DNA of 64,000 bases, taken from IMG/VR virus record IMGVR_UViG_3300017917_002938, positions 1-64,000 of that record. One strand, written 5' to 3'. Source of the DNA: a virus. The stretch's first letter is position 1. Each line of letters starts with the position of its first letter. The notes beneath the pieces are model-generated. The model saw only the letters and a program-made list of their open reading frames with translations. It did not search any database and had not been told where the DNA came from. This document shows, piece after piece, positions 54,935-64,000 of this stretch. A program made the position numbers and the translations under genes.

Positions 54935-55171
54935 CTAGATTGGTAGCTTACGTGACTTTGGAAGGTAGTTATTTTCCTCAGCCTCGTTTTGTATTTTCGC
55001 TTTCATTTTTGCGCTTCCTTTGATCAAGGAAGCTGCGGTTTCAATTTCAATATCGTTTTGTTGACAGTACATTATTACTGCGTCGATGTACTCCATTTTC
55101 TTCTCAGCAACCAGCTTCTCTATCTCTTGCATAAACGTGGTTGGGGATCTTTCAAAATTAACTACGTCCAT
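54935..55171 (-). CDS. gp33: Late transcription coactivator gp33
   Basis: EIEKLV..MEYIDAVIMYC..NDIEIE..KI..EA..NYL..KLPI. Confidence 0.88.
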   Translation of the reverse strand: MDVVNFERSPTTFMQEIEKLVAEKKMEYIDAVIMYCQQNDIEIETAASLIKGSAKMKAKIQNEAEENNYLPKSRKLPI

Positions 55172-55509
55172 TATTTAAACACAATCATAGCAAGAAGTAT
55201 AGCATGAGTGATGAACCCTCCGCCAATCGTAACGATGTTAAGGATGTCTTTGTTGATCAGAGCTTTGATGAAGAACAAGAACAACCCTCCCCATAAGAAG
55301 AAAACAACATCCAATGACGGCATGTTATCGCTATACCCTACTAACAATGCCAGGACGGAAGGAATGGTAGCGCAGTGTAGCATGACATACCCTAACCATT
55401 CTACAAACTTAGCTGATAAATGGCTTAGACTATAATTTATAACACGGGACGCCCATTCTACAAAGCTTTCCATCTTAGCAGCGAGCGGTGTAATGTTTTC
55501 AAGTGCCAT
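55171..55509 (-). CDS. Small integral membrane protein (about 3 TM)
   Basis: Three hydrophobic segments. Coupled to the cell-wall hydrolase gene. Confidence 0.75.
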   Translation of the reverse strand: MALENITPLAAKMESFVEWASRVINYSLSHLSAKFVEWLGYVMLHCATIPSVLALLVGYSDNMPSLDVVFFLWGGLFLFFIKALINKDILNIVTIGGGFITHAILLAMIVFK

Positions 55510-56083
55510 CGTTTCTACCCTTATAAAAAATATGTGTTCCTATCTTACCAATCTTTTCTAGATTCCATTTCGGATTTACATAATCAGCATGATAGTACAA
55601 CGCTTCTTTTAAACCGTCAATGCGGAAGTTTTCCAATAAAACTTTTTTAGCTACTTCCTGACTCTCGTTATACAGGACAGGGTGGACAATTTTCTTTTTA
55701 TGACTCTGCTCACAGAACCAAGAAAATTGACATACTACCTTGTCATATATTACATTTTTTTGATATACTACAGCACAAACATTGCTAGGGAACTTGCCTG
55801 AGTTAACTCTATTCAAAGTAACTTGAGCTACCGCAACCTTGCCTTCGAATGGCTCTGTTGCTGCCTCCCAATAAATGTTCTTGGTTAGACAGTCTAGTTG
55901 CTTTGTTGTCTCGCTAGCAGTAACACCAATAGGCATTCTAGCTGTATTGTAGTAAGATTGAACCTTAGTATCGTACGCATACTTAATTACCTTCAATGCA
56001 AAAAAGGCTCCTAGTATGATCGCTATCGATAGTAAAATGTTAGAGATTGTTCTATGTTTGAACAATACTATACCCTTAAACAT
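55499..56083 (-). CDS. SleB-like cell wall hydrolase (Hydrolase_2) with N-terminal TM anchor
   Basis: CLTKNIYWEA..EP..GKVAVAQVTLNRV..FP..VC.VVYQ..CQFSW, ALYYHADYVNPKW..IGTHIFY. Confidence 0.92.
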   Translation of the reverse strand: MFKGIVLFKHRTISNILLSIAIILGAFFALKVIKYAYDTKVQSYYNTARMPIGVTASETTKQLDCLTKNIYWEAATEPFEGKVAVAQVTLNRVNSGKFPSNVCAVVYQKNVIYDKVVCQFSWFCEQSHKKKIVHPVLYNESQEVAKKVLLENFRIDGLKEALYYHADYVNPKWNLEKIGKIGTHIFYKGRNDGT

Positions 56084-56130
56084 AAGTCCTCCTTATATGG
56101 GTAAATTATAACTACTTTGTGTTATTAAAT

Positions 56131-56229
56131 CTAGCGGTACGTTGGTAGATTTGACAAGTAGTTAATCATCATAGGAGCGGCGAAGTGTGCCATTAGCATC
56201 CAGATGACGATAAAAGCGAAGGGATCCAT
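56131..56229 (-). CDS. 32-aa hydrophobic peptide (below the ORF-track cutoff)
   Basis: AGGAGGA SD, then MDPFAFIVIWMLMAHFAAPMMINYLSNLPTYR*. Confidence 0.55.
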   Translation of the reverse strand: MDPFAFIVIWMLMAHFAAPMMINYLSNLPTYR

Positions 56230-56303
56230 AGTCCTCCTGTTAATGTCGTGCGACATGGTAGAAGTATATATGGATCCCGAGAAGAGGAGTTAACCTCTAT
56301 TGA

Positions 56304-56756
56304 TTAAAATGCAAATTTGACACCAGCATTTACTGAGCTACCATCAAAGCTGTCGATGCGAGATTGTCCTAGTTGATAGCGATAATCTGCTGTTAAAGCT
56401 ACTGATTTAGTAATTGAATAGCTTGCGCCAGCACCTACTAGCCAAGCATACCCATCAGAGCCTGTGCGGTTATTAATAAAACCTGCACCTCCCTTTGCGG
56501 TAAGTACGATAGGTCCTACTTTGGTAATATCTACAGTACCTAGAACGGAATATCGTTCTTGTTCGATACCACTGTTGCGAAATTGATCGTAAGCGAGCTC
56601 GAACCCAGTATCACCACTTTTCTTTCCGAGGGTAATACCAACAGATGATCTATCGGTTCCTGCGAAACGTTCTCCTCCGTTAATTCCTAGCTCGAATGCT
56701 GAAGCGGCCGTAGCGCTCAAAAACAAAATAGAAAAAATAGCCGTTTTAAACTTCAT
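56304..56756 (-). CDS. Outer-membrane beta-barrel protein (OmpA-TM/Ail/Lom-like, about 8 strands)
   Basis: Signal peptide MKFKTAIFSILFLSATAASA, alternating strands VGAGASYSIT..VALTADYRY, and terminal GVKFAF. The track's longer start overlaps the tmRNA. Confidence 0.85.
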   Translation of the reverse strand: MKFKTAIFSILFLSATAASAFELGINGGERFAGTDRSSVGITLGKKSGDTGFELAYDQFRNSGIEQERYSVLGTVDITKVGPIVLTAKGGAGFINNRTGSDGYAWLVGAGASYSITKSVALTADYRYQLGQSRIDSFDGSSVNAGVKFAF

Positions 56757-56779
56757 GAATAGCCTTTCAATGTTATGAT

Positions 56780-56822
56780 AAAAAGAGAAGTTTTTATTCT
56801 GTTGCCAAGTCAAAAACCTCTC
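56780..56822 (-). terminator. Hairpin + U-tract ending the tmRNA coding piece
   Basis: GAGAGGTTTTT..GCAA..AAAAACTTCTC followed by TTTTT. Confidence 0.55.
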
Positions 56823-57095
56823 CACAAAAAACTCCGGTCAGCGGTTAGGCTGCCAGTGCAAATCTTTCATCGTTTGCGTTTACTTTTTTTGCTTGATTTA
56901 CGGTCATCGCCTACCGTGTTGCCGTCTCTACTATCTACCCCTGTCGAAACCATGACTGGCCCATTAGAAAGAACTCTTTAGTATAGTCTGTAGCACTTGT
57001 CTGTCTCTATACAGGATGAAGAATTCTTTCTGGTGGACCAGGCGGGAGTCGAACCCGCGTCCAGAAGTCCTTCGCTTTGAAGGGATCACAACAAT
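56780..57095 (-). ncRNA. ssrA: Circularly permuted two-piece tmRNA
   Basis: Acceptor piece about 57095-57031 (GCGGGTTCGACTCCCGC CTGGTCC ACCA), spacer 57030-56963, coding piece from 56962 (GGGCCAGTCATGGTTTCGAC). G3-U70 and A73 present. Tag ANDERFALAA* at 56877-56845. Outer ends approximate. Confidence 0.92.
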
Positions 57096-57098
57096 TCT

Positions 57099-57308
57099 TT
57101 ACTTAGGTGCGCCGGTTGGCTCGGCCTTCTTGTGTGTTTTGATCTTCTTACACTCTTGAACTTTTTTCCCGTCCTTGCCTACGACAGGCTTACCATCTTT
57201 ACCTACTTTATCATGACATACTTCTTTAACTACTGCTTCTGCATGCACTGGTGCAATAGAAGTAACTAAAAATAGTGATAATGCAATGGTTGACAATTGT
57301 TTTAACAT
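57099..57308 (-). CDS. Small secreted Lys-rich protein with two Cys
   Basis: SD AGGAG, signal peptide ending VHA, repeated VGKDGK between two Cys. Confidence 0.75.
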   Translation of the reverse strand: MLKQLSTIALSLFLVTSIAPVHAEAVVKEVCHDKVGKDGKPVVGKDGKKVQECKKIKTHKKAEPTGAPK

Positions 57309-57345
57309 GTTATCTCCTGTTTAATACCGTTCTATACGGTAAGCT

Positions 57346-57353
57346 TATTTATC
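57346..57353 (-). promoter_or_regulatory. Late promoter-like GATAAATA upstream of the 69-aa gene and tmRNA
   Basis: ATAAATA core immediately after the DUF932 hairpin. Confidence 0.5.
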
Positions 57354-57357
57354 AGCA

Positions 57358-57384
57358 AGAGAACCGAGTCTCCCCGGTTCTCTC
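57358..57384 (-). terminator. Hairpin after the DUF932 gene
   Basis: AGAGAACCG...CGGTTCTCT inverted repeat just after the stop codon. Confidence 0.6.
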
Positions 57385-57391
57385 TAAGCTA

Positions 57392-58327
57392 TCAGGCTGC
57401 TTCAGCGTATTCTACTGCCTTCTCAAGTGCCTTTACCTTCAATGTCTTGTTAGGACCGTACCAGGCAGATGTCAGACGAGTGTCTGCTGAACGTCCTACC
57501 AGATGGTCAGTCAGAAACGTTACTGCATTGAACGGCTGCCACCAAGTTCCTTCGGCGTACTTAGCCCCAGGCTGTCTTTCAATCAAGTCCAATGCCTTGA
57601 TAGCATTACGAGAAAGTTCTTTGTTCTCTTTACCTGACAATGATGGGAATACTTCCATGAAATACTCTTTCACTTTGTCTTGCTTAAAGCGCTTCGATCC
57701 AAGGAATTGAGCCATCTCTTTGTACTTGGCTAGCTTATGTGTAGCGATGCCAAGCTGTTCCTTTACTTTAGTAGCATCAAAGGCAGTACGGTGAGATACC
57801 TTAACCATATTGTCATTCTTTGACGCAAGACTCAAAGTAAGCGTATTGTTGCAAACAACTCGAACTGGAGTAAAGCGAACATCGATAGATTGACCAAACT
57901 TATGAGGATTAGTAAAAAGTAGATATGAGTCCACTTGATCACCCTTGAACAGTTCAAATGAGTCTTTGACCTTAGCAAGAGCCCACACAATCTGACCACC
58001 CTTAAGCGAACCAGCTGTATGCATTTCAAGATCACCTGTACGGCAATATTCATCGAAGAATTCGAATGCTTCAGCGTTTTGAACTGGGTTCCAGTCACTG
58101 GAGACAACGTCAAGGATTTTGTCATCAGAGTCTCGAACTAGTGCAGACCAACCTACGTTAACACTTCGTCCTGCCACCTCTGCGAACGCTGGTGCTTTGG
58201 TAACTTGCCAGTCCAGCTTGGCTTTTCGTAACATCTGTTCTGGAGATAGATCTGCGGGTACTTTTTCACCCAGACCGTGCCAAGGTACTTCTCCTGCGTA
58301 AGCCATCGTTTCGATTAAATGAGCCAT
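57392..58327 (-). CDS. DUF932 family protein
   Basis: MAYAGEVPWHGLG, PVQNAEAFEFF, TAGSLKGG..VWALA, TPVRVVCNNTL, WWQPFNAVT..DH. Confidence 0.9.
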   Translation of the reverse strand: MAHLIETMAYAGEVPWHGLGEKVPADLSPEQMLRKAKLDWQVTKAPAFAEVAGRSVNVGWSALVRDSDDKILDVVSSDWNPVQNAEAFEFFDEYCRTGDLEMHTAGSLKGGQIVWALAKVKDSFELFKGDQVDSYLLFTNPHKFGQSIDVRFTPVRVVCNNTLTLSLASKNDNMVKVSHRTAFDATKVKEQLGIATHKLAKYKEMAQFLGSKRFKQDKVKEYFMEVFPSLSGKENKELSRNAIKALDLIERQPGAKYAEGTWWQPFNAVTFLTDHLVGRSADTRLTSAWYGPNKTLKVKALEKAVEYAEAA

Positions 58328-58358
58328 TTTAACTTCCTTTCACGTTGAACATATTTAT

Positions 58359-58387
58359 ATTGTATTCGCGGGACGAAAATAAATCAA
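58359..58387 (-). promoter_or_regulatory. Sigma70-like early promoter TTGATT-N17-TACAAT, with TATAAATA at 58352-58359
   Basis: Read directly upstream of the DUF932 gene. Confidence 0.75.
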
Positions 58388-58468
58388 GCGTTTTGTATGA
58401 ATGTCAAAAGCTGACTTAGTAGGTGTGGTTTATACACAAACGTAGCTATGACGAAGCCTGCGATAAAG

Positions 58469-58900
58469 TTAATCATTATAAGCCTCCTCTTCCTCTTCGT
58501 AGTCATATTCTGGATCAGTCTCGATCAAGAGATGACCAATACGAATGATACCGTCCCAGTCACGATTTAACTCTGCTCTTCCTCCAGACGTAGAGAATGG
58601 ATGTTCAAACTCAACTATAGTGCCACCGTCAAGGAAGTTACTTGGGCATGTCTGATCAATATCTTCAAGACGAATACAACCTATCAAGCCTGCATCTACG
58701 CTGTAGCGGTTACCTTTCTGGTCTCGGTATTCACCATCACCCCATTTAGTACCGAAGGTAGCAAAACGGCGACCGTCTTTCAAATTGAACTCACCATCTA
58801 GACATTGGTGTCCTTTAATCGTAAGGTCGCAGAACTCATCCCATTCATTATGCATGACGTAACACAGATCTCCGACATAGTACTTACCTGCAGGCATCAT
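58469..58900 (-). CDS. Conserved phage hypothetical protein
   Basis: SD AAGGAG before the ATG at 58900. YYVGDLCYV..TKWGDGEY..VDAGLIGCI motif. Confidence 0.8.
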   Translation of the reverse strand: MMPAGKYYVGDLCYVMHNEWDEFCDLTIKGHQCLDGEFNLKDGRRFATFGTKWGDGEYRDQKGNRYSVDAGLIGCIRLEDIDQTCPSNFLDGGTIVEFEHPFSTSGGRAELNRDWDGIIRIGHLLIETDPEYDYEEEEEAYND

Positions 58901-58932
58901 ATCAAATCTCCTTTTCAACAATTGATATATTA

Positions 58933-58961
58933 ATTATAGCGCGCTCGCGTAATTAAATCAA
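58933..58961 (-). promoter_or_regulatory. Sigma70-like early promoter TTGATT-N17-TATAAT
   Basis: Read directly. 17-nt spacer. Confidence 0.8.
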
Positions 58962-58986
58962 CTGTTTTAGAAGTAACTATTTTTAG

Positions 58987-59598
58987 TTAAACCACGAATT
59001 CTGTGGTGTCGTTCTCACATGCCCATAGAGTGGCTATAATTTTAGTGCCTTTTATGACTTTTTCACCTGCATGAATAGTCATGTCATTTACTACTTGAAA
59101 AGGATAGTTATATTTGAAGACAAGCATGTCGCCTTTGGAAGGGAGAACTGCAAATTTTAGTTTACTGAATGACGTGGCCCCGCCTTCGTCGGGGGTGCGT
59201 AAGTAAACAATTGCAGTAGCTATACGCTGACCTTCTTTCTTGATGTTGGGGTTTTTTTCAATCACAGATTGATCGTAGAAGTCATAATGATTTTTGTACT
59301 CTTGACCTTCTTCGTATTTTGTGAGAGTAACCCTTTGCATGGTTTTTGTAGGTCTTCCTATAATCTTGGAAAACTTTCTATGCATGTAGTGAGAAATAAA
59401 ATCATTACGGTACATAAAAAAAGAGGAACTAGTTCTCCATGAAGGATCTAATTCACTTTCAGATGTATAGACATTAACTACTTTAGATTGTTTGAAGTAT
59501 TTGTCATACTTCCAGCAAACGAAGTCACAAAAAAAGCCGGAGAACGCTCCCTCGTAGAGCGTTACTTCCGGCATATCGTTCAGTATTTCTTTTTTCAT
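58987..59598 (-). CDS. Prolyl 4-hydroxylase-like 2OG-Fe(II) oxygenase
   Basis: YEEGQEYKNHYDF, GQRIATAIVYL..PDEGGATSF, PSKGDMLVF, HAGEKVIKGTKIIATLW. The track's start lies within a tRNA, so the ATG at 59598 is preferred. Confidence 0.88.
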   Translation of the reverse strand: MKKEILNDMPEVTLYEGAFSGFFCDFVCWKYDKYFKQSKVVNVYTSESELDPSWRTSSSFFMYRNDFISHYMHRKFSKIIGRPTKTMQRVTLTKYEEGQEYKNHYDFYDQSVIEKNPNIKKEGQRIATAIVYLRTPDEGGATSFSKLKFAVLPSKGDMLVFKYNYPFQVVNDMTIHAGEKVIKGTKIIATLWACENDTTEFVV

Positions 59599-59603
59599 GT
59601 TAG

Positions 59604-59678
59604 TGGTGGGCTGACTAGGAATTGAACCTAGACTCAATCGATTATGAGTCGACTGCTTTACCATTAAGCTATCAGCCC
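59604..59678 (-). tRNA. tRNA with CAT anticodon, probably Ile2 (lysidine type)
   Basis: GGGCTGA/TCAGCCC-A-CCA acceptor. The GTCGA-CTCATAA-TCGAT arm resembles Ile2, and initiator features are absent. Confidence 0.88.
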
Positions 59679-60337
59679 GTATTATTTAAAAGTTGATCGG
59701 TAAATTCTAATAGTAATTTATGTTGCCTGCCTTCATGATACAACCCTCTCATCCAGCTATGAATGGTGTACCAGTAACGTTGACTTTCTGGATGACAACC
59801 TATAAGGCCGATGTTGTTTTGAATTGCTGCCATAACATCACCATTCTTATACCTGGCAACAGTTTTAAACATGCTTTCGTTTCCTACTATAGCACAACCG
59901 TCAAAAAAGAACATCCTTTCTTTGTTACCGTTCCATTCAACTTCTATATTTTTTGCATGAGGGCGTCTTGTATCAGTTCCTGGTCTCCGTATATATTGAA
60001 CAGTATCGGCTTCTTTTAGTATATTAAAATAGTGCTTACCGGCCCAATATGCTCCCATACAAATGCCAAGGTACTTGCCTCCTCCGTTTACAAATTTCAT
60101 TACGTGATCGTGATTTTCTCTCATCAAGTAATCAAACGAATCGGAGGATCCTTCCCCTCCAGGAAAAATCACTACATCAACGTCATCAAAAAAATCATCC
60201 TCAACTTGATGTCGAGTAAATATTTTAAATTTGTAGTGTGGTGTAAGTGATTCTATTGTTCCGTTAACGCATTGTATGGAACACTTTGGATGATGTAAAA
60301 ATATTGCTGCCGTTGTGTGCTTGTATGTCAAAGACAT
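59672..60337 (-). CDS. Class I glutamine amidotransferase-like (BPL_N-type) protein
   Basis: [19 protein letters not shown] (nucleophile elbow), GCHPE. Confidence 0.82.
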
Positions 60338-60350
60338 AACCTCGTGTTGT

Positions 60351-60433
60351 TGGTACCCGAGACGGGATTCGAACCCGTACGCTTTTGGCGGGGGATTTTA
60401 AGTCCCCTGTGTCTACCGTTCCACCACCCGGGC
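60351..60433 (-). tRNA. tRNA-Leu(TAA)
   Basis: GGGGA-CTTAAAA-TCCCC arm, long variable arm, encoded CCA. Confidence 0.93.
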
Positions 60434-60438
60434 GACTA

Positions 60439-60657
60439 TTAATTGTTATTTTTCTTTACAAAATCTACAATCTTTTGAGCTTCTGTTAACACTGCCTCTA
60501 CAGTTGGTGGCTCTTCTTGGAAATCGGGACTAATCATTCCTGTCTGAGGGTTGCGAGTGCGTTCCATTTTGGAATAAAAAGACTGGTTTACTTGATCACG
60601 TGCAAGTTCTACCGCACGCACTACAAAATTAGACTCATTAGATTGATTGATAATCAT
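60439..60657 (-). CDS. Hypothetical protein
   Basis: SD AGGAG. C-terminal PTVEAVLTEAQKIVDFV motif. Confidence 0.75.
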   Translation of the reverse strand: MIINQSNESNFVVRAVELARDQVNQSFYSKMERTRNPQTGMISPDFQEEPPTVEAVLTEAQKIVDFVKKNNN

Positions 60658-60668
60658 TATAACTCCTA

Positions 60669-61325
60669 TTAACGAATTGTATATTGTCCGACAACTGCAC
60701 CAGGTTTTTGTAGTGTAGCATCGCGACGCTTCTTGTATTCCTCGTTGTCCACTTCAAGCAATTCAATTACACCATCAGAAGCACGAGACTGTTTATCTAG
60801 CTCTTTAAATTTCTTCTCTCTCAGCTCATTTCTAGAATTATTGTCAACGAGACGGCGGCTTTCATCGAGGGGGAGAGATAGGAGTACAAAAGCTCTATAA
60901 CCGTCTTTTTCTTTCGTTAGGAAAAGCTTTTCGCGTTTATACATTGAGAGTGATTGCTTAGTAACAATTTTAGAAACACGATCTACTTCCCTATCAATAC
61001 TTTTCATATCAGCAGTACCCTGTTCGTTTACTGACTCACGAATCATAGATTCTACTACTACGTTAACGCGATTGGCTAGTTCGACCCTGGCATTCATCAT
61101 TGCTTTGTCGATAGCAAATTGCATGTGTTTAGATACATCGGTTGCACTAACGTAGATCATTTTATCCGTAGTTAACGAGTCGTTGGTGTACCAATCAGGT
61201 ACCTCTCCTTTGAACTCAGCTACCGCTACCGTTTTTACTCCATCGGTAGTATTAGTTTTAAACGCTGAACATCCAGTCTCAAGAATACCAGCTGCGCACA
61301 GCAATAAAATTGTTAACATTCTCAT
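60669..61325 (-). CDS. Lipoprotein (LPP20-like)
   Basis: Signal peptide with lipobox-like TGC, VPDWY, AIDKAMMNARVELA. Confidence 0.75.
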   Translation of the reverse strand: MRMLTILLLCAAGILETGCSAFKTNTTDGVKTVAVAEFKGEVPDWYTNDSLTTDKMIYVSATDVSKHMQFAIDKAMMNARVELANRVNVVVESMIRESVNEQGTADMKSIDREVDRVSKIVTKQSLSMYKREKLFLTKEKDGYRAFVLLSLPLDESRRLVDNNSRNELREKKFKELDKQSRASDGVIELLEVDNEEYKKRRDATLQKPGAVVGQYTIR

Positions 61326-61334
61326 TTCACATCC

Positions 61335-62054
61335 TCATAGTCTAAAAATAGAATAATCCTTATAAACAACTCTTCGAGAGTACACCGGTAGAGTTTTAAT
61401 AAGCTCGTCCAAATGCTTCTTACTGATGTTATCGTAGTCGAAATTAAGCTTGGTCGACGTAAAAATAAACACCAATGTCTCTTTAGAGAAGTTAACGCCG
61501 TCTTTTAGTTTTGCTTCAATATGAATCGAGTTCAATTTATAAAAGTCGGAAGGAAAAATAAACTTACCGTTCACTACTCTATCCATATTATATTGAAGCG
61601 GATGAATTAAATCAACCCCATCTTTATAAACAGCAAAGACGTACATATGAACGGGTTGACGAGCATTAACGGTATACTCTACTATGTCACCGTTTTTAAA
61701 TTCACTCTTACCGTTTACTGTTACGTAGATTGATGCTGGATTATTTACTAAAACTTTCACTTCAGAATGACATATACCATTCCGTATGATTGTCTTTGAG
61801 GAAATTACTTTATTAATTTGACCCGCAGCATATGTCTCTGATTCTTTTTGATACTGACATGATGGGTCTTTGTTTTTAGTGTCTGCACAAACGTACGTTT
61901 CCACAGATTCAATAAGCATTCCGTTAGCTTGTTTAAGAGCGTGTTCAAATGCTTTTGACTCTGCAATTGCACAATTGTTATGTTCTCCCTTACCGTCATA
62001 TACCTGAGCGGTTACGACAGAAGGGAGAAGCAATGCTAGAAGTAATTTTTTCAT
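61335..62054 (-). CDS. Secreted protein, probable C-terminal DUF4384-like domain
   Basis: Signal peptide MKKLLLALLLPSVVTA. Contains GDIVEYTV..HMYVF..LIHP. Confidence 0.65.
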   Translation of the reverse strand: MKKLLLALLLPSVVTAQVYDGKGEHNNCAIAESKAFEHALKQANGMLIESVETYVCADTKNKDPSCQYQKESETYAAGQINKVISSKTIIRNGICHSEVKVLVNNPASIYVTVNGKSEFKNGDIVEYTVNARQPVHMYVFAVYKDGVDLIHPLQYNMDRVVNGKFIFPSDFYKLNSIHIEAKLKDGVNFSKETLVFIFTSTKLNFDYDNISKKHLDELIKTLPVYSRRVVYKDYSIFRL

Positions 62055-62060
62055 ACTAGT

Positions 62061-62089
62061 ATTGTAACGAAAATGAAAAAATAAAGCAA
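62061..62089 (-). promoter_or_regulatory. Sigma70-like promoter TTGCTT-N17-TACAAT (probably leaderless transcript)
   Basis: The -10 element ends 6 nt before the ATG at 62054. No SD. Confidence 0.7.
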
Positions 62090-62101
62090 CTAGTTTATGT
62101 C

Positions 62102-62176
62102 TGGCCCGGCGTGAGGGAATCGAACCCCCATTCGCACTTTAGAAGAATGCTGTCCTATCCATTGAACGAACGCCAG
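62102..62176 (-). tRNA. tRNA-Arg(TCT)
   Basis: GCATT-CTTCTAA-AGTGC arm, GGTTCGATTCC, CCA. Confidence 0.92.
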
Positions 62177-62185
62177 GTATTGTTA

Positions 62186-62656
62186 TTATGCTGCTTTCAG
62201 AGATTTAAATCTATCGGCTGCATATGAGGCTGCGAAAGCTTCTGGTTTAACCAAAGGTACAACATTACATGTACCACGAATGTATCCAATAGCTTCATTC
62301 ACCACGCATGATGATCCGTGCATTTCGTTAGGGTTGATGTCAAGATGAACTTGAACATCTCTGCCTTCTAGTACATCAGCAAGCTTCAAATACAATTCAC
62401 TAACCTTATACACCTCATTCATTAGACGGTAACGTGGGCGATTAAACTTTTGATCGTAGTCACGTTCTTTTTGAATTTCACCAAATAGTTTACAACCGTT
62501 ATTACCGTTGATGTGAACGACAATAGCTAGAATGTAATCCGCCCACCATTCCTTACCAACTTTATATCTCTCAGAGTCACAACCAATATAGATTTTTGTT
62601 TCTGGAGATTGCGCCTGAATGAATTCTTTTACTTCTTCTAGATCAAGCTTACGCAT
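62186..62656 (-). CDS. RNase H-like YkuK (DUF458) family protein
   Basis: IYIGCDS, RLMNEV, VHLDIN, KPEAFAASYAADR. Confidence 0.88.
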   Translation of the reverse strand: MRKLDLEEVKEFIQAQSPETKIYIGCDSERYKVGKEWWADYILAIVVHINGNNGCKLFGEIQKERDYDQKFNRPRYRLMNEVYKVSELYLKLADVLEGRDVQVHLDINPNEMHGSSCVVNEAIGYIRGTCNVVPLVKPEAFAASYAADRFKSLKAA

Positions 62657-62671
62657 AGTACTACCTTTCTA

Positions 62672-62745
62672 TGGCACCCCGAGAGGGATTCGAACCCCCA
62701 CCAACGGTTTTGGAGACCGCAATGCTGCCGTTACACCATCGAGAT
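62672..62745 (-). tRNA. tRNA-Trp(CCA)
   Basis: GCGGT-CTCCAAA-ACCGT arm, G73, CCA. Confidence 0.92.
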
Positions 62746-62762
62746 ACGTTTTTTATTTAGGG

Positions 62763-63016
62763 TGAGGATATGAGTTTGATCCGGCAACGAAGCCGCTTAG
62801 CAATATGCAATTAGCAATATGCAATAAGCAGACCACAAAGCATAGGATTCCGTTTATCAACAAGCAGCGACTTTCGTCTTGTATGGAACGGAGCAACAAG
62901 CATGGGTTGGTCGGGATTGATCGGATTCGGGTTAACAAGGCCCAAACCTAGCTAGTAAGACATTTCAAGTGTCAACTAGATTGCAACAACGCCCCCTTCA
63001 CTCCCCCATACCCTCA
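62763..63016 (-). ncRNA. Candidate structured ncRNA (about 250 nt)
   Basis: A 12-bp closing helix TGAGGGTATGGG/CTCATATCCTCA (with G-U pairs on the minus strand), several internal hairpins including GAC-GAAA-GTC, and repeated (G)CTTGTT/ATTGC motifs. Confidence 0.65.
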
Positions 63017-63021
63017 AAACT

Positions 63022-63603
63022 TTATAGAATACCTTCCGCTTTAAGAGTCTGAACGGTTAGTTCAGACAATGTAATCAAGGTATTGACATTGAGTTGTAAG
63101 AGTTTATCTTGCAGCTCTTGACGATCACGCTTGAGGTTTCTAACTGCATTTTTTGCAGCGTCAATATCTGATTGCAACACTACGCTGGTTTCAACGTTGT
63201 TAAAACGGTCACCGTAAATGGATGCACGCGCAGAATCGGAAGGTTGTTCTTTGAACTTTTGAATTCGTGCACTGATTTCAATCTGACTCTTACGAGGTTT
63301 GAGACCTGCAATCACACTATGTACGGCCATAGAAGCGTCTGTAGCTTCTACTTCTGCTAAGATAGTGTTAATGTCAGCATCAGCATTAGCCTTACCTACG
63401 CGTTTACGAATGTCGTACATTGCGTTGATAAGTGATAGTTTACGAGTAACTGTATCGTTTAACTCTGCACGGTTTTTGGTAAGAGTATCTTCTACCCCAT
63501 CTGTAAACTCAGATACCTGAGTCTCAGATTCAAATTTTATTCCGTTAATAGTTTTACGAATCTCGGCTTGAATTGCATTAGCTTTACGTAGATTAACTTG
63601 CAT
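63022..63603 (-). CDS. Long coiled-coil protein (tentatively DIP1984/DUF6847-like)
   Basis: SD GAAAGGA before the ATG at 63603. MQVNLRKANAIQAEI...LQDKLLQLNVNTLITL. Confidence 0.75.
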   Translation of the reverse strand: MQVNLRKANAIQAEIRKTINGIKFESETQVSEFTDGVEDTLTKNRAELNDTVTRKLSLINAMYDIRKRVGKANADADINTILAEVEATDASMAVHSVIAGLKPRKSQIEISARIQKFKEQPSDSARASIYGDRFNNVETSVVLQSDIDAAKNAVRNLKRDRQELQDKLLQLNVNTLITLSELTVQTLKAEGIL

Positions 63604-63628
63604 GTTATTTCCTTTCAATCAATAATGT

Positions 63629-63657
63629 ATTCTATATGAATTTTTTAATAAGATCAA
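63629..63657 (-). promoter_or_regulatory. Sigma70-like early promoter TTGATC-N17-TAGAAT
   Basis: Read directly. Same architecture as three others in the region. Confidence 0.7.
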
Positions 63658-63659
63658 CT

Positions 63660-63735
63660 TGGTGCTGCCTCGTGGGATCGAACCACGTTCCTCGGTTCTT
63701 CAGACCGGTGCTATGACCACATCAGCTAAAGCAGC
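63660..63735 (-). tRNA. tRNA-Phe(GAA)
   Basis: Loop CTGAAGA, acceptor GCTGCTT/AGGCAGC-A-CCA. Confidence 0.9.
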
Positions 63736-63742
63736 ATTAAAT

Positions 63743-63817
63743 TGGTACCTGGTCACGGTTTCGAACCGCGGACCCTCTCCTTGTAAGGGAGACGCTCTAC
63801 CCCTGAGCTAACCAGGC
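63743..63817 (-). tRNA. tRNA-Val(TAC)
   Basis: TCTCC-CTTACAA-GGAGA arm, CCA. Confidence 0.93.
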
Positions 63818-63828
63818 ATAATTCTCTT

Positions 63829-63904
63829 TGGGGTACTATAAGAGGATCGAACTCTTACTATCTCGGTCACAGCGAGAGGTGCAGACCACTACACTAATAG
63901 TACC
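63829..63904 (-). tRNA. tRNA-His(GTG)
   Basis: TCTCG-CTGTGAC-CGAGA arm, G-1:C73 pair, CCA. Confidence 0.92.
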
Positions 63905-63914
63905 CCAAAAAGAA

Positions 63915-64000
63915 CTAAGTTATTTGTTTCTGTACTCTACCTATACGACTATTTTTACTCCAATCATATTTGGTTCCATCTGGACATTTTCCATCTTTGA
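63915..64000 (-). CDS. 3' end of a hypothetical protein entering the window
   Basis: The frame reads ..KDGKCPDGTKYDWSKNSRIGRVQKQIT* with TAG at 63915-63917. Confidence 0.5.
   Translation of the reverse strand, partial: KDGKCPDGTKYDWSKNSRIGRVQKQIT

Follow-up and report, generated by a model that had tools for sequence, protein, structure and literature searches.

What fills the 276-nucleotide (nt) stretch free of open reading frames (ORFs) at 63021..62746, between the coding sequence (CDS) of a 193-amino-acid (aa) protein and a transfer RNA (tRNA) gene in a T4-like lake phage? The window analyzed here is the whole 64,000-nt DNA stretch at positions 1 to 64,000 of the virus record IMGVR_UViG_3300017917_002938. 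This record is 163.5 kb long and is estimated to be 93% complete. It encodes T4-type baseplate wedge genes and carries a tRNA cluster with a permuted transfer-messenger RNA (tmRNA), as found by ARAGORN and Rfam. The ORF-free stretch contains a conserved structured RNA of approximately 255 nt, located at 62763-63016 on the minus strand. The RNA carries a UG dinucleotide every 7 nt in its 3' half and is genetically linked to the gene of the 193-aa protein. The gene-RNA pair is widespread and uncatalogued. All features of the locus lie on the minus strand, in the order 193-aa gene, structured RNA, and tRNA-Trp:

63629..63657 (-): promoter-like site TTGATC-17-TAGAAT, 9/12 matches in a consensus scan, a lead only
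63022..63603 (-): gene of the 193-aa all-helical protein, ORF call
62754..63021 (-): full match to R1, the covariance model of the heptad-rail RNA (176 bits, E 5e-45)
62763-63016 (-): RNA core, P1 to P1', from the coordinates of the P1 strands
62672..62745 (-): tRNA-Trp(CCA), ARAGORN and Rfam

The RNA starts 5 nt past the stop codon of the 193-aa gene, and tRNA-Trp starts 17 nt past P1. Both spacings are as claimed in a preliminary description of this DNA. The 163.5-kb genome holds one copy of the RNA and one of the gene.

The evidence for the structure comes from the relatives of the RNA. In the model alignment, 96.1% of the pair cells are standard pairs versus 76.6% in shuffled alignments, and 381 cells have changed on both sides versus 89. 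None of the 500 shuffles reached the observed values. When the pairing partners were slid by 1-3 columns, pairing fell to 43-47%. In an alignment built by MAFFT, which is blind to structure, 93.8% of the cells are paired versus 77.9% in shuffles, with 183 both-side changes versus 54. RNAalifold alone recovered P1, P4, and P5. Five helices (P1, P4, P5, P6, and P7) are well supported and covary strongly. G-U pairs are frequent and occur on the sense strand only, which suits an RNA better than a DNA cruciform. Indels among the relatives are not limited to multiples of three nt, as they would have to be in a coding region. A small ORF or ribosome-binding site in the 5' strand of the RNA (GAGG...AUG in some clades) was considered and rejected, as it is not conserved. 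Covariation in two alignments, together with the 7-nt UG periodicity, confirmed the earlier proposal that a real structured RNA lies in the gap. Its elements are as follows:

63005..63016 (-): P1, 5' strand of the closing helix, purine-rich UGAGGGUAUGGG, covariation
62995..63006 (-): conserved purine-rich junction after P1, consensus GGAUAAGAGAG or GGUAGACGAG, family alignments
62952..62979 (-): P3 hairpin, CUAGU..GACA-CUUGAAA-UGUC..ACUAG, folding against shuffles
62924..62948 (-): P4 hairpin, covariation
62909..62912 with 62831-62834 (-): P5 long-range helix, GACC with GGUC, covariation
62850..62891 (-): P6 helix, CCGUU/AACGG, enclosing P7, covariation
62869-62878 (-): P7 hairpin, GAC-GAAA-GUC, 96.8% of cells paired
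62858-62868 (-): near-invariant strand GCUGCUUGUUG inside P6, invariant alignment columns
62794..62839 (-): heptad rail, six UG exactly 7 nt apart, running into GCG, periodicity test
62782..62795 (-): P8 hairpin, CGGC-UUCGUU-GCCG (consensus GCGA-CUAU-UCGC), weak covariation
62763..62774 (-): P1, 3' strand CUCAUAUCCUCA, covariation in two alignments

Most of the helices named in the preliminary description were recovered. The closing helix pairs 63016-63005 with 62774-62763 over 12 base pairs (bp), including 2 G-U pairs. CTAGT/ACTAG with GACA/TGTC forms hairpin P3 (62979-62952), GGTTTGGG/CCCGAATC forms hairpin P4 (62948-62924), and CCGTT/AACGG forms P6. A GAAA tetraloop is also present as described, and it caps the inner 3-bp hairpin P7 (GAC-GAAA-GTC) rather than TCCGTT/AACGGA directly. 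Of the proposed GCTTA/TAAGC helix, relatives keep the outer two pairs only.

In the model, 11/11 pairs of P1 changed on both sides, and 97.8% of the cells are paired. The short helix P2 is stacked on P1, and the internal loop between them is conserved (5' GGAUAAGAG, 3' GAAUUGA). Clear covariation is seen at one pair of P2 (G-C 42, A-U 10, and U-A 8). The 3' junction opposite the purine-rich junction has this GAAUUGA consensus and reads GGAUCAAAC in the window, at 62773-62781. P3 keeps its structure across the family while its sequence varies. Compared with shuffles, the P3 segment has the better fold in 91% of 58 non-redundant relatives, with a median z of -2.2. All four pairs of P4 examined covary (4/4), and 96% of the cells are paired. 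The P4 loop is 7 nt long, usually sits on a 5-bp stem, and has the consensus C(U/C)UGAAA, which is conserved in two family alignments; the loop in the window is CCUUGUUAA. With a 7-nt loop and usually a 5-bp stem, the P4 arm is like an anticodon arm, which is a resemblance only. The middle pair of P5 occurs as C-G 19, G-C 15, U-A 13, U-G 7, and A-U 3. P6 covaries at 5/5 pairs, with 98.7% of the cells paired. P8 is the weakest helix, with 81-97% of the cells paired and changes that are mostly one-sided. A covariation screen of all columns gave no convincing pseudoknot or long-range pair beyond P1-P8, and the conserved junctions cannot show covariation in such a screen.

The heptad rail lies between P5 and P8, where a UG dinucleotide recurs every 7 nt. 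In the window it reads UUUG-UGGUCUG-CUUAUUG-CAUAUUG-CUAAUUG-CAUAUUG-CUAAGCG, and the UG contexts are UUUG, UCUG, and then four AUUG. UG pairs at lag 7 number 208 in 56 non-redundant arrays, compared with 21.7 +/- 4.7 in shuffles, and harmonics appear at lags 14, 21, and 28. Six phased UGs are present in 52/72 non-redundant RNAs, whereas shuffles mostly show two. The periodicity is kept across clades that differ in their spacer bases. Most clades have UUGC or UUGU as the fixed motif, Kikimora has UGUG, and the constant motif is AAAG in a possibly related RNA associated with T5.085. A hairpin is inserted between the third and fourth units in some clades. In the close clade, the array columns hold 0.54 bits versus 0.45 bits in other unpaired columns, and the spacer bases are no more variable than other unpaired positions. 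The fourth heptad is nearly invariant among close relatives. Repeated UUG motifs and a 14-nt tandem duplication (62824-62797) had been noticed before. The duplication is present and consists of two heptads repeated twice. The UUG motifs also exist and recur in phase at 7-nt intervals, which makes the RNA multivalent.

The RNA is also tied genetically to the adjacent gene. A total of 109 loci of the protein's homologues were fetched. In approximately 50 of the 71 unique loci, an ORF-free gap of 250-290 nt separates the stop codon from a tRNA, the identity of which varies (Gly, Trp, Met, Leu, or Val). The gap sequences of these relatives are plainly homologous. The covariance model R1, which has 274 positions and 32 pairs, finds the RNA beside protein homologues in 69 loci at E <= 0.003. 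These loci belong to freshwater and marine T4-like or large phages and to Caulobacter phage CcrPW. With filters off, R1 also aligns at full length to the gap that follows CcrColossus gp272 (E 0.001) and to the one after the homologue in Brevundimonas phage Kabachok (E 0.0055). The gaps of CcrPW, Kikimora, and Vibrio phage 2.275.O measure 273-311 nt and have the same layout. The RNA usually starts 5-9 nt past the stop codon. No tRNA follows it in the Caulobacter, Brevundimonas, and Vibrio phages, and a terminator hairpin closes the copy in the Vibrio phage.

The layout varies in a few loci. An ORF of approximately 140 aa is inserted between the gene and the RNA in L033, L034, L036, and L039, where the RNA follows the ORF. 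In L032 and L043, the RNA lies approximately 270 nt upstream of the gene. The linkage survives both the inserted ORF and the swapped order, which favors a cognate protein-RNA pair. A pattern scan of IMG/VR for the RNA alone gave 76 hits. Seventeen were true RNAs by nhmmer, and all of these (17/17) had the gene 5-9 nt upstream; the other 59 arose by chance and contained neither RNA nor gene. The covarying downstream RNA expected beside the homologues and the genetic tie to the helical protein were thus both found, in the 69 loci and in the pattern-found RNAs, respectively. A nucleotide search of GenBank phages gave the tRNA as the sole match.

Two further observations concern the borders of the RNA. 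In CcrColossus (L111 3095-3134) and CcrPW (L112 3107-3152), a strong GC-rich hairpin without a U-tail stands between the stop codon and P1; this hairpin may mark a processing site or act as an attenuator. In L016 and L026, an identical extension of approximately 60 nt (…CUCAGGAACUCCCGUACACCUGAGUUAAAAUAACAAAAAAACGGGGCCAU) follows P1 before tRNA-Gly, and the gap measures 331-340 nt.

The CDS at 63603..63022 on the minus strand encodes the 193-aa partner. The earlier proposal that this protein is all-helical is borne out by its AlphaFold2 (AF2) model, which has a predicted local distance difference test (pLDDT) score of 95 and just two 3-residue strands. A word-indexed search gave 313 relatives of the protein, and an exhaustive search put its family at 1443 clusters at 50% identity. 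No relatives were found in bacterial genomes. The protein has a weak match to phrog_25230 (E 3e-6). Pfam gave no family match, with toxin and nuclease families also unmatched. No characterized family or fold was found by Pfam, PHROGs, PDB sequence, Foldseek PDB, VIA-wide, or ESM Atlas searches. Matches to helical bundles (BAR, syntaxin, EncB, and 3kdq) are at noise level. Among them, the C. diphtheriae protein 3kdq is the top structural match (Z 10.7, root-mean-square deviation 6.8 over 141 residues), which lies in the noise range of helical bundles. One ESM Atlas cluster with DUF6847 (PF20935) matches the protein at a template modeling (TM) score of 0.63, and 0/89 family members match PF20935 among the listed families. 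The closest viral structural matches in BFVD include CcrColossus K4K6G4, which is gp272 by position, and Erwinia and Vibrio phage proteins. Twelve basic positions are conserved in the protein, and Arg6, Gln12, Arg66, and Asn172 are invariant.

In Kabachok (L110 14084-15094), a 336-aa ORF annotated as 'major capsid protein' lies 1.5 kb downstream of the module. The region around it is otherwise non-structural and holds genes for a seryl-tRNA synthetase and a CCA-adding enzyme. The capsid annotation prompted the idea that the 193-aa protein is a scaffolding protein. This was rejected, since the region is otherwise non-structural and the gene elsewhere sits in tRNA clusters.

How might the pair work? 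The preferred explanation is a dedicated ribonucleoprotein (RNP), in which copies of the helical protein would line up along the heptad rail; this explanation is given about an even chance of being right. Transcription, processing, protein binding, stoichiometry, and function are inferred as follows. The non-coding RNA of approximately 255 nt would be co-transcribed with the upstream 193-aa gene. Neither the CDS-RNA nor the RNA-tRNA junction has a terminator-like site, which was counted in favor of co-transcription. The 3' end would probably be freed by an RNase P cut at the next tRNA, with 5' processing of the tRNA setting the end. The rail of six UG motifs would be single-stranded, and several protein copies would bind the RNA, roughly one per heptad, while the folded core may serve as a nucleation or handle domain. 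The product would be a stable RNP that acts in trans during infection. Its task may be in RNA or translation takeover, a guess made because the pair sits inside a tRNA cluster. The basic positions and the invariant Arg, Gln, and Asn of the protein were counted in favor of the RNP. Furthermore, the constant motif differs between branches, which is easier to explain by co-evolution with a cognate protein than by a single host factor common to all.

Several points weigh against an RNP of this kind. The protein is near neutral, with a median isoelectric point of 6.3, and no recognized RNA-binding fold was found for it. Co-transcription in a densely packed operon could by itself account for its adjacency to the RNA. 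As a single sequence, the RNA in the window has an unexceptional fold (z = -1.27), and the case therefore rests on comparison with relatives. In addition, the aligned sequences are related to each other, and the shuffle controls therefore make significance look higher than it is; the slid controls are free of this problem.

The two leading alternatives are a host-factor sponge and a cis-acting role. It is unlikely that the RNA acts alone as a decoy or sponge, with its UG motifs and conserved loops titrating a host or other phage RNA-binding protein and its linkage to the gene due to shared transcription. As in known sponges, a short single-stranded motif occurs in many copies in the RNA, and the adjacent protein is near neutral without a known RNA-binding fold. 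However, the gene-RNA linkage persists despite the order change and the ORF insertion and holds across Vibrio, Caulobacter, and freshwater-phage hosts. The constant motif also differs by clade, which is unexpected for a single conserved host target. The second alternative is a cis-acting role as part of the transcript, either as an operator in the 3' untranslated region for autoregulation of the upstream gene or as a stabilizing or processing scaffold of the tRNA precursor. Such a role is quite unlikely, as the RNA is found approximately 270 nt upstream of the gene in L032 and L043, no tRNA follows it in the Caulobacter, Brevundimonas, and Vibrio phages, and a size of approximately 255 nt with at least seven helices and near-invariant junctions far exceeds the needs of known 3' stabilizers. 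It would nevertheless suit an RNA that starts 5 nt past a stop codon, is usually followed by a tRNA within 10-30 nt, and has no promoter or terminator of its own found at the locus.

A guide-like RNA resembling the vrRNAs of VIPR, in which protomers hold the fixed UGs and the variable heptad bases jointly specify a nucleic-acid target, is very improbable. The resemblance lies in a short-period repeat with fixed and variable positions beside a phage protein (bioRxiv 10.64898/2026.04.26.720920). In contrast, the variable positions of this RNA are not hypervariable (0.54 vs 0.45 bits), its fourth heptad is almost invariant, it has only six units, and the protein is all-helical instead of having a RAMP/RRM fold. 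Still less credible, at an extremely low probability, is that there is no RNA and that the gap is a DNA element (an origin, packaging, or recombination site), a short coding region, or a product of chance. The ORF list gives a 61-aa ORF overlapping the gap, and iterons bound by protein at the DNA level are in principle another way to read the repeats. Compensatory changes in five helices, strand-specific G-U pairs, indels not restricted to whole codons, and an orientation relative to the gene that is fixed in all loci all oppose this. The preliminary description had further suggested a logic similar to that of type III antitoxins. This suggestion is not supported, as there are no tandem units of approximately 36 nt and the protein matches no toxin or nuclease family. 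The sole tandem unit in the RNA is the 14-nt heptad duplication, versus the repeats of approximately 34-36 nt beside an endoribonuclease toxin in type III toxin-antitoxin (ToxIN-like) systems.

It is rare for a large structured RNA to have a dedicated protein partner, and such pairs have repeatedly opened new biology, as with tmRNA, CRISPR, and VIPR. The pair described here is abundant, with a protein family of more than 1400 clusters at 50% identity. It is present in the cultured phages CcrColossus and CcrPW of the model bacterium Caulobacter crescentus, and its transcript, partner, and function are therefore directly testable. The strict 7-nt phasing provides a concrete, falsifiable binding model for the proposed RNP.

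The surroundings of the pair hold other features of the tRNA cluster. An 'early promoter' had been proposed upstream of the 193-aa gene. This claim was not sustained, since the site is merely a 9/12 consensus match, and promoter-like sites in the region are no commoner than in shuffles by consensus scan. The permuted tmRNA at 56754-57145 on the minus strand is a phage-borne, circularly permuted two-piece tmRNA with the tag ANDERFALAA; it matches Rfam beta_tmRNA at 154.6 bits and tmRNA_permuted at 146.1 bits. Directly downstream of the RNA-tRNA unit, between tRNA-Trp and tRNA-Arg, a gene at 62186-62656 on the minus strand encodes a 156-aa RNaseH_like protein (PF04308, E 1.6e-17; phrog_11311). 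At 59672-60337 on the minus strand, the cluster also holds a gene for a 221-aa protein with matches to BPL_N and to class-I glutamine amidotransferase-like proteins. The end of this ORF (59672) overlaps tRNA-Met (59604-59678).

Does the RNA belong to a system that is already known? The preliminary description had assigned it to no named family, and a check against Rfam 15 agrees. A cmscan of 55000-64000 at E <= 1 gave nothing in 62746-63021 and returned just the tmRNA, tRNAs, and one sub-threshold chance hit. The families covered include tmRNA, 6S, RNase P, Y RNA, ROOL, GOLLD, skipping-rope RF02924, and RAGATH-27 RF03100. No description of the module was found in the literature on DUF6847, DIP1984, T5.085, and phage structured RNAs. 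Likewise, no description of the RNA or the protein was found in the literature; a 2023 survey of approximately 10,000 candidate phage RNA motifs (PMC10690425) could contain the RNA, which cannot be checked by name. A period-7 cluster (bioRxiv 10.64898/2026.10.21.760802) was considered and set aside as a different element, an inverted two-array element in Patescibacteria.

Phage T4 itself encodes rnaC and rnaD (species 1 and 2), which are stable non-tRNA RNAs processed with tRNAs and share with this RNA just their place in a T4-type tRNA cluster. They differ in having neither heptads nor a partner gene directly upstream, and rnaC ends in a tRNA-like T-arm. They were rejected as homologues, since R1 with filters off gave only noise over the T4 tRNA region and there was no sequence or structure match. 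T4 rnaD and rnaC (L191 2409-2672) lie back to back after tRNA-Arg and together measure 264 nt, near the size of this RNA. The reading of a motif at fixed spacing on single-stranded RNA by an oligomeric protein is known from TRAP on the Bacillus trp leader and HutP on hut mRNA. In those cases, ring-shaped, beta-rich proteins read cis-regulatory leaders in which triplets are spaced 2-4 nt apart. Those systems share just the periodic motif reading with the present pair, which has a free-standing structured RNA of 255 nt, a helical partner, and a 7-nt period. ROOL and GOLLD are ornate RNAs of large size from phages or prophages, and tRNAs are often close by (PMC12286853). They resemble this RNA as large, conserved, phage-borne structured RNAs near tRNA genes. 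However, these RNAs assemble into RNA-only multimers, are two to three times larger, and lack both a constant protein neighbor and a heptad rail.

VIPR is the nearest published logic, and its defining features are absent here. It consists of the Vipr protein and the vrRNA, with protomers that polymerize along the repeats (bioRxiv 10.64898/2026.04.26.720920 and 10.64898/2026.04.26.720927). Both systems are phage-encoded, and in both a small protein gene stands next to an RNA with a structured handle and short-period repeats. Vipr is a RAMP/RRM protein (RRM core, G-loop, and thumb), whereas the protein here is all-helical and gave no RRM or Cas-like structural matches. The vrRNA has a 5-nt GGY/NN period with 9-16 units (YNNGG), whereas the present RNA has a 7-nt period with a fixed UG (UUGC) and approximately six units. 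Furthermore, the NN positions of vrRNA are hypervariable, unlike the spacer bases here, and no target is evident.

Another likeness is seen in the module of T5.085 (phrog_1491). It also combines a gene for a helical protein of approximately 200 aa with a following end-paired RNA that carries a tract with a 7-nt period, often in tRNA clusters. The T5 RNA has a closing helix and AAAG heptads, approximately 12 units in approximately 350 nt, whereas the RNA described here has UG as its fixed motif and six units. Both RNAs carry a GUAGACGA-like junction just after P1. R1 with filters off gave no match at the T5.085-associated RNA, and phrog_1491 has no match in this genome. The T5.085 family aligns with the present protein family by hhalign over 166 colinear columns at E 0.0026, with a probability of just 11.5%. 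The seven best BFVD matches of the T5.085 model occupy ranks 10-18 for the present protein, right after its own family members. The T5.085 module is probably a sister branch, in a remote relationship. A much broader proposal, held at very low probability, is that the pair is a branch of an ancient virus-wide RNP class found in T4-like, large Caulobacter/Brevundimonas/Vibrio, and T5-like phages and perhaps giant viruses. In such a class, a helical non-RAMP protein would polymerize on a 7-nt RNA rail, and the spacer bases or the anticodon-arm-like P4 loop would recognize a nucleic-acid or translation-machinery target. If true, this class would represent a second, independent form of repeat-coded RNA-guided recognition beside VIPR and CRISPR.

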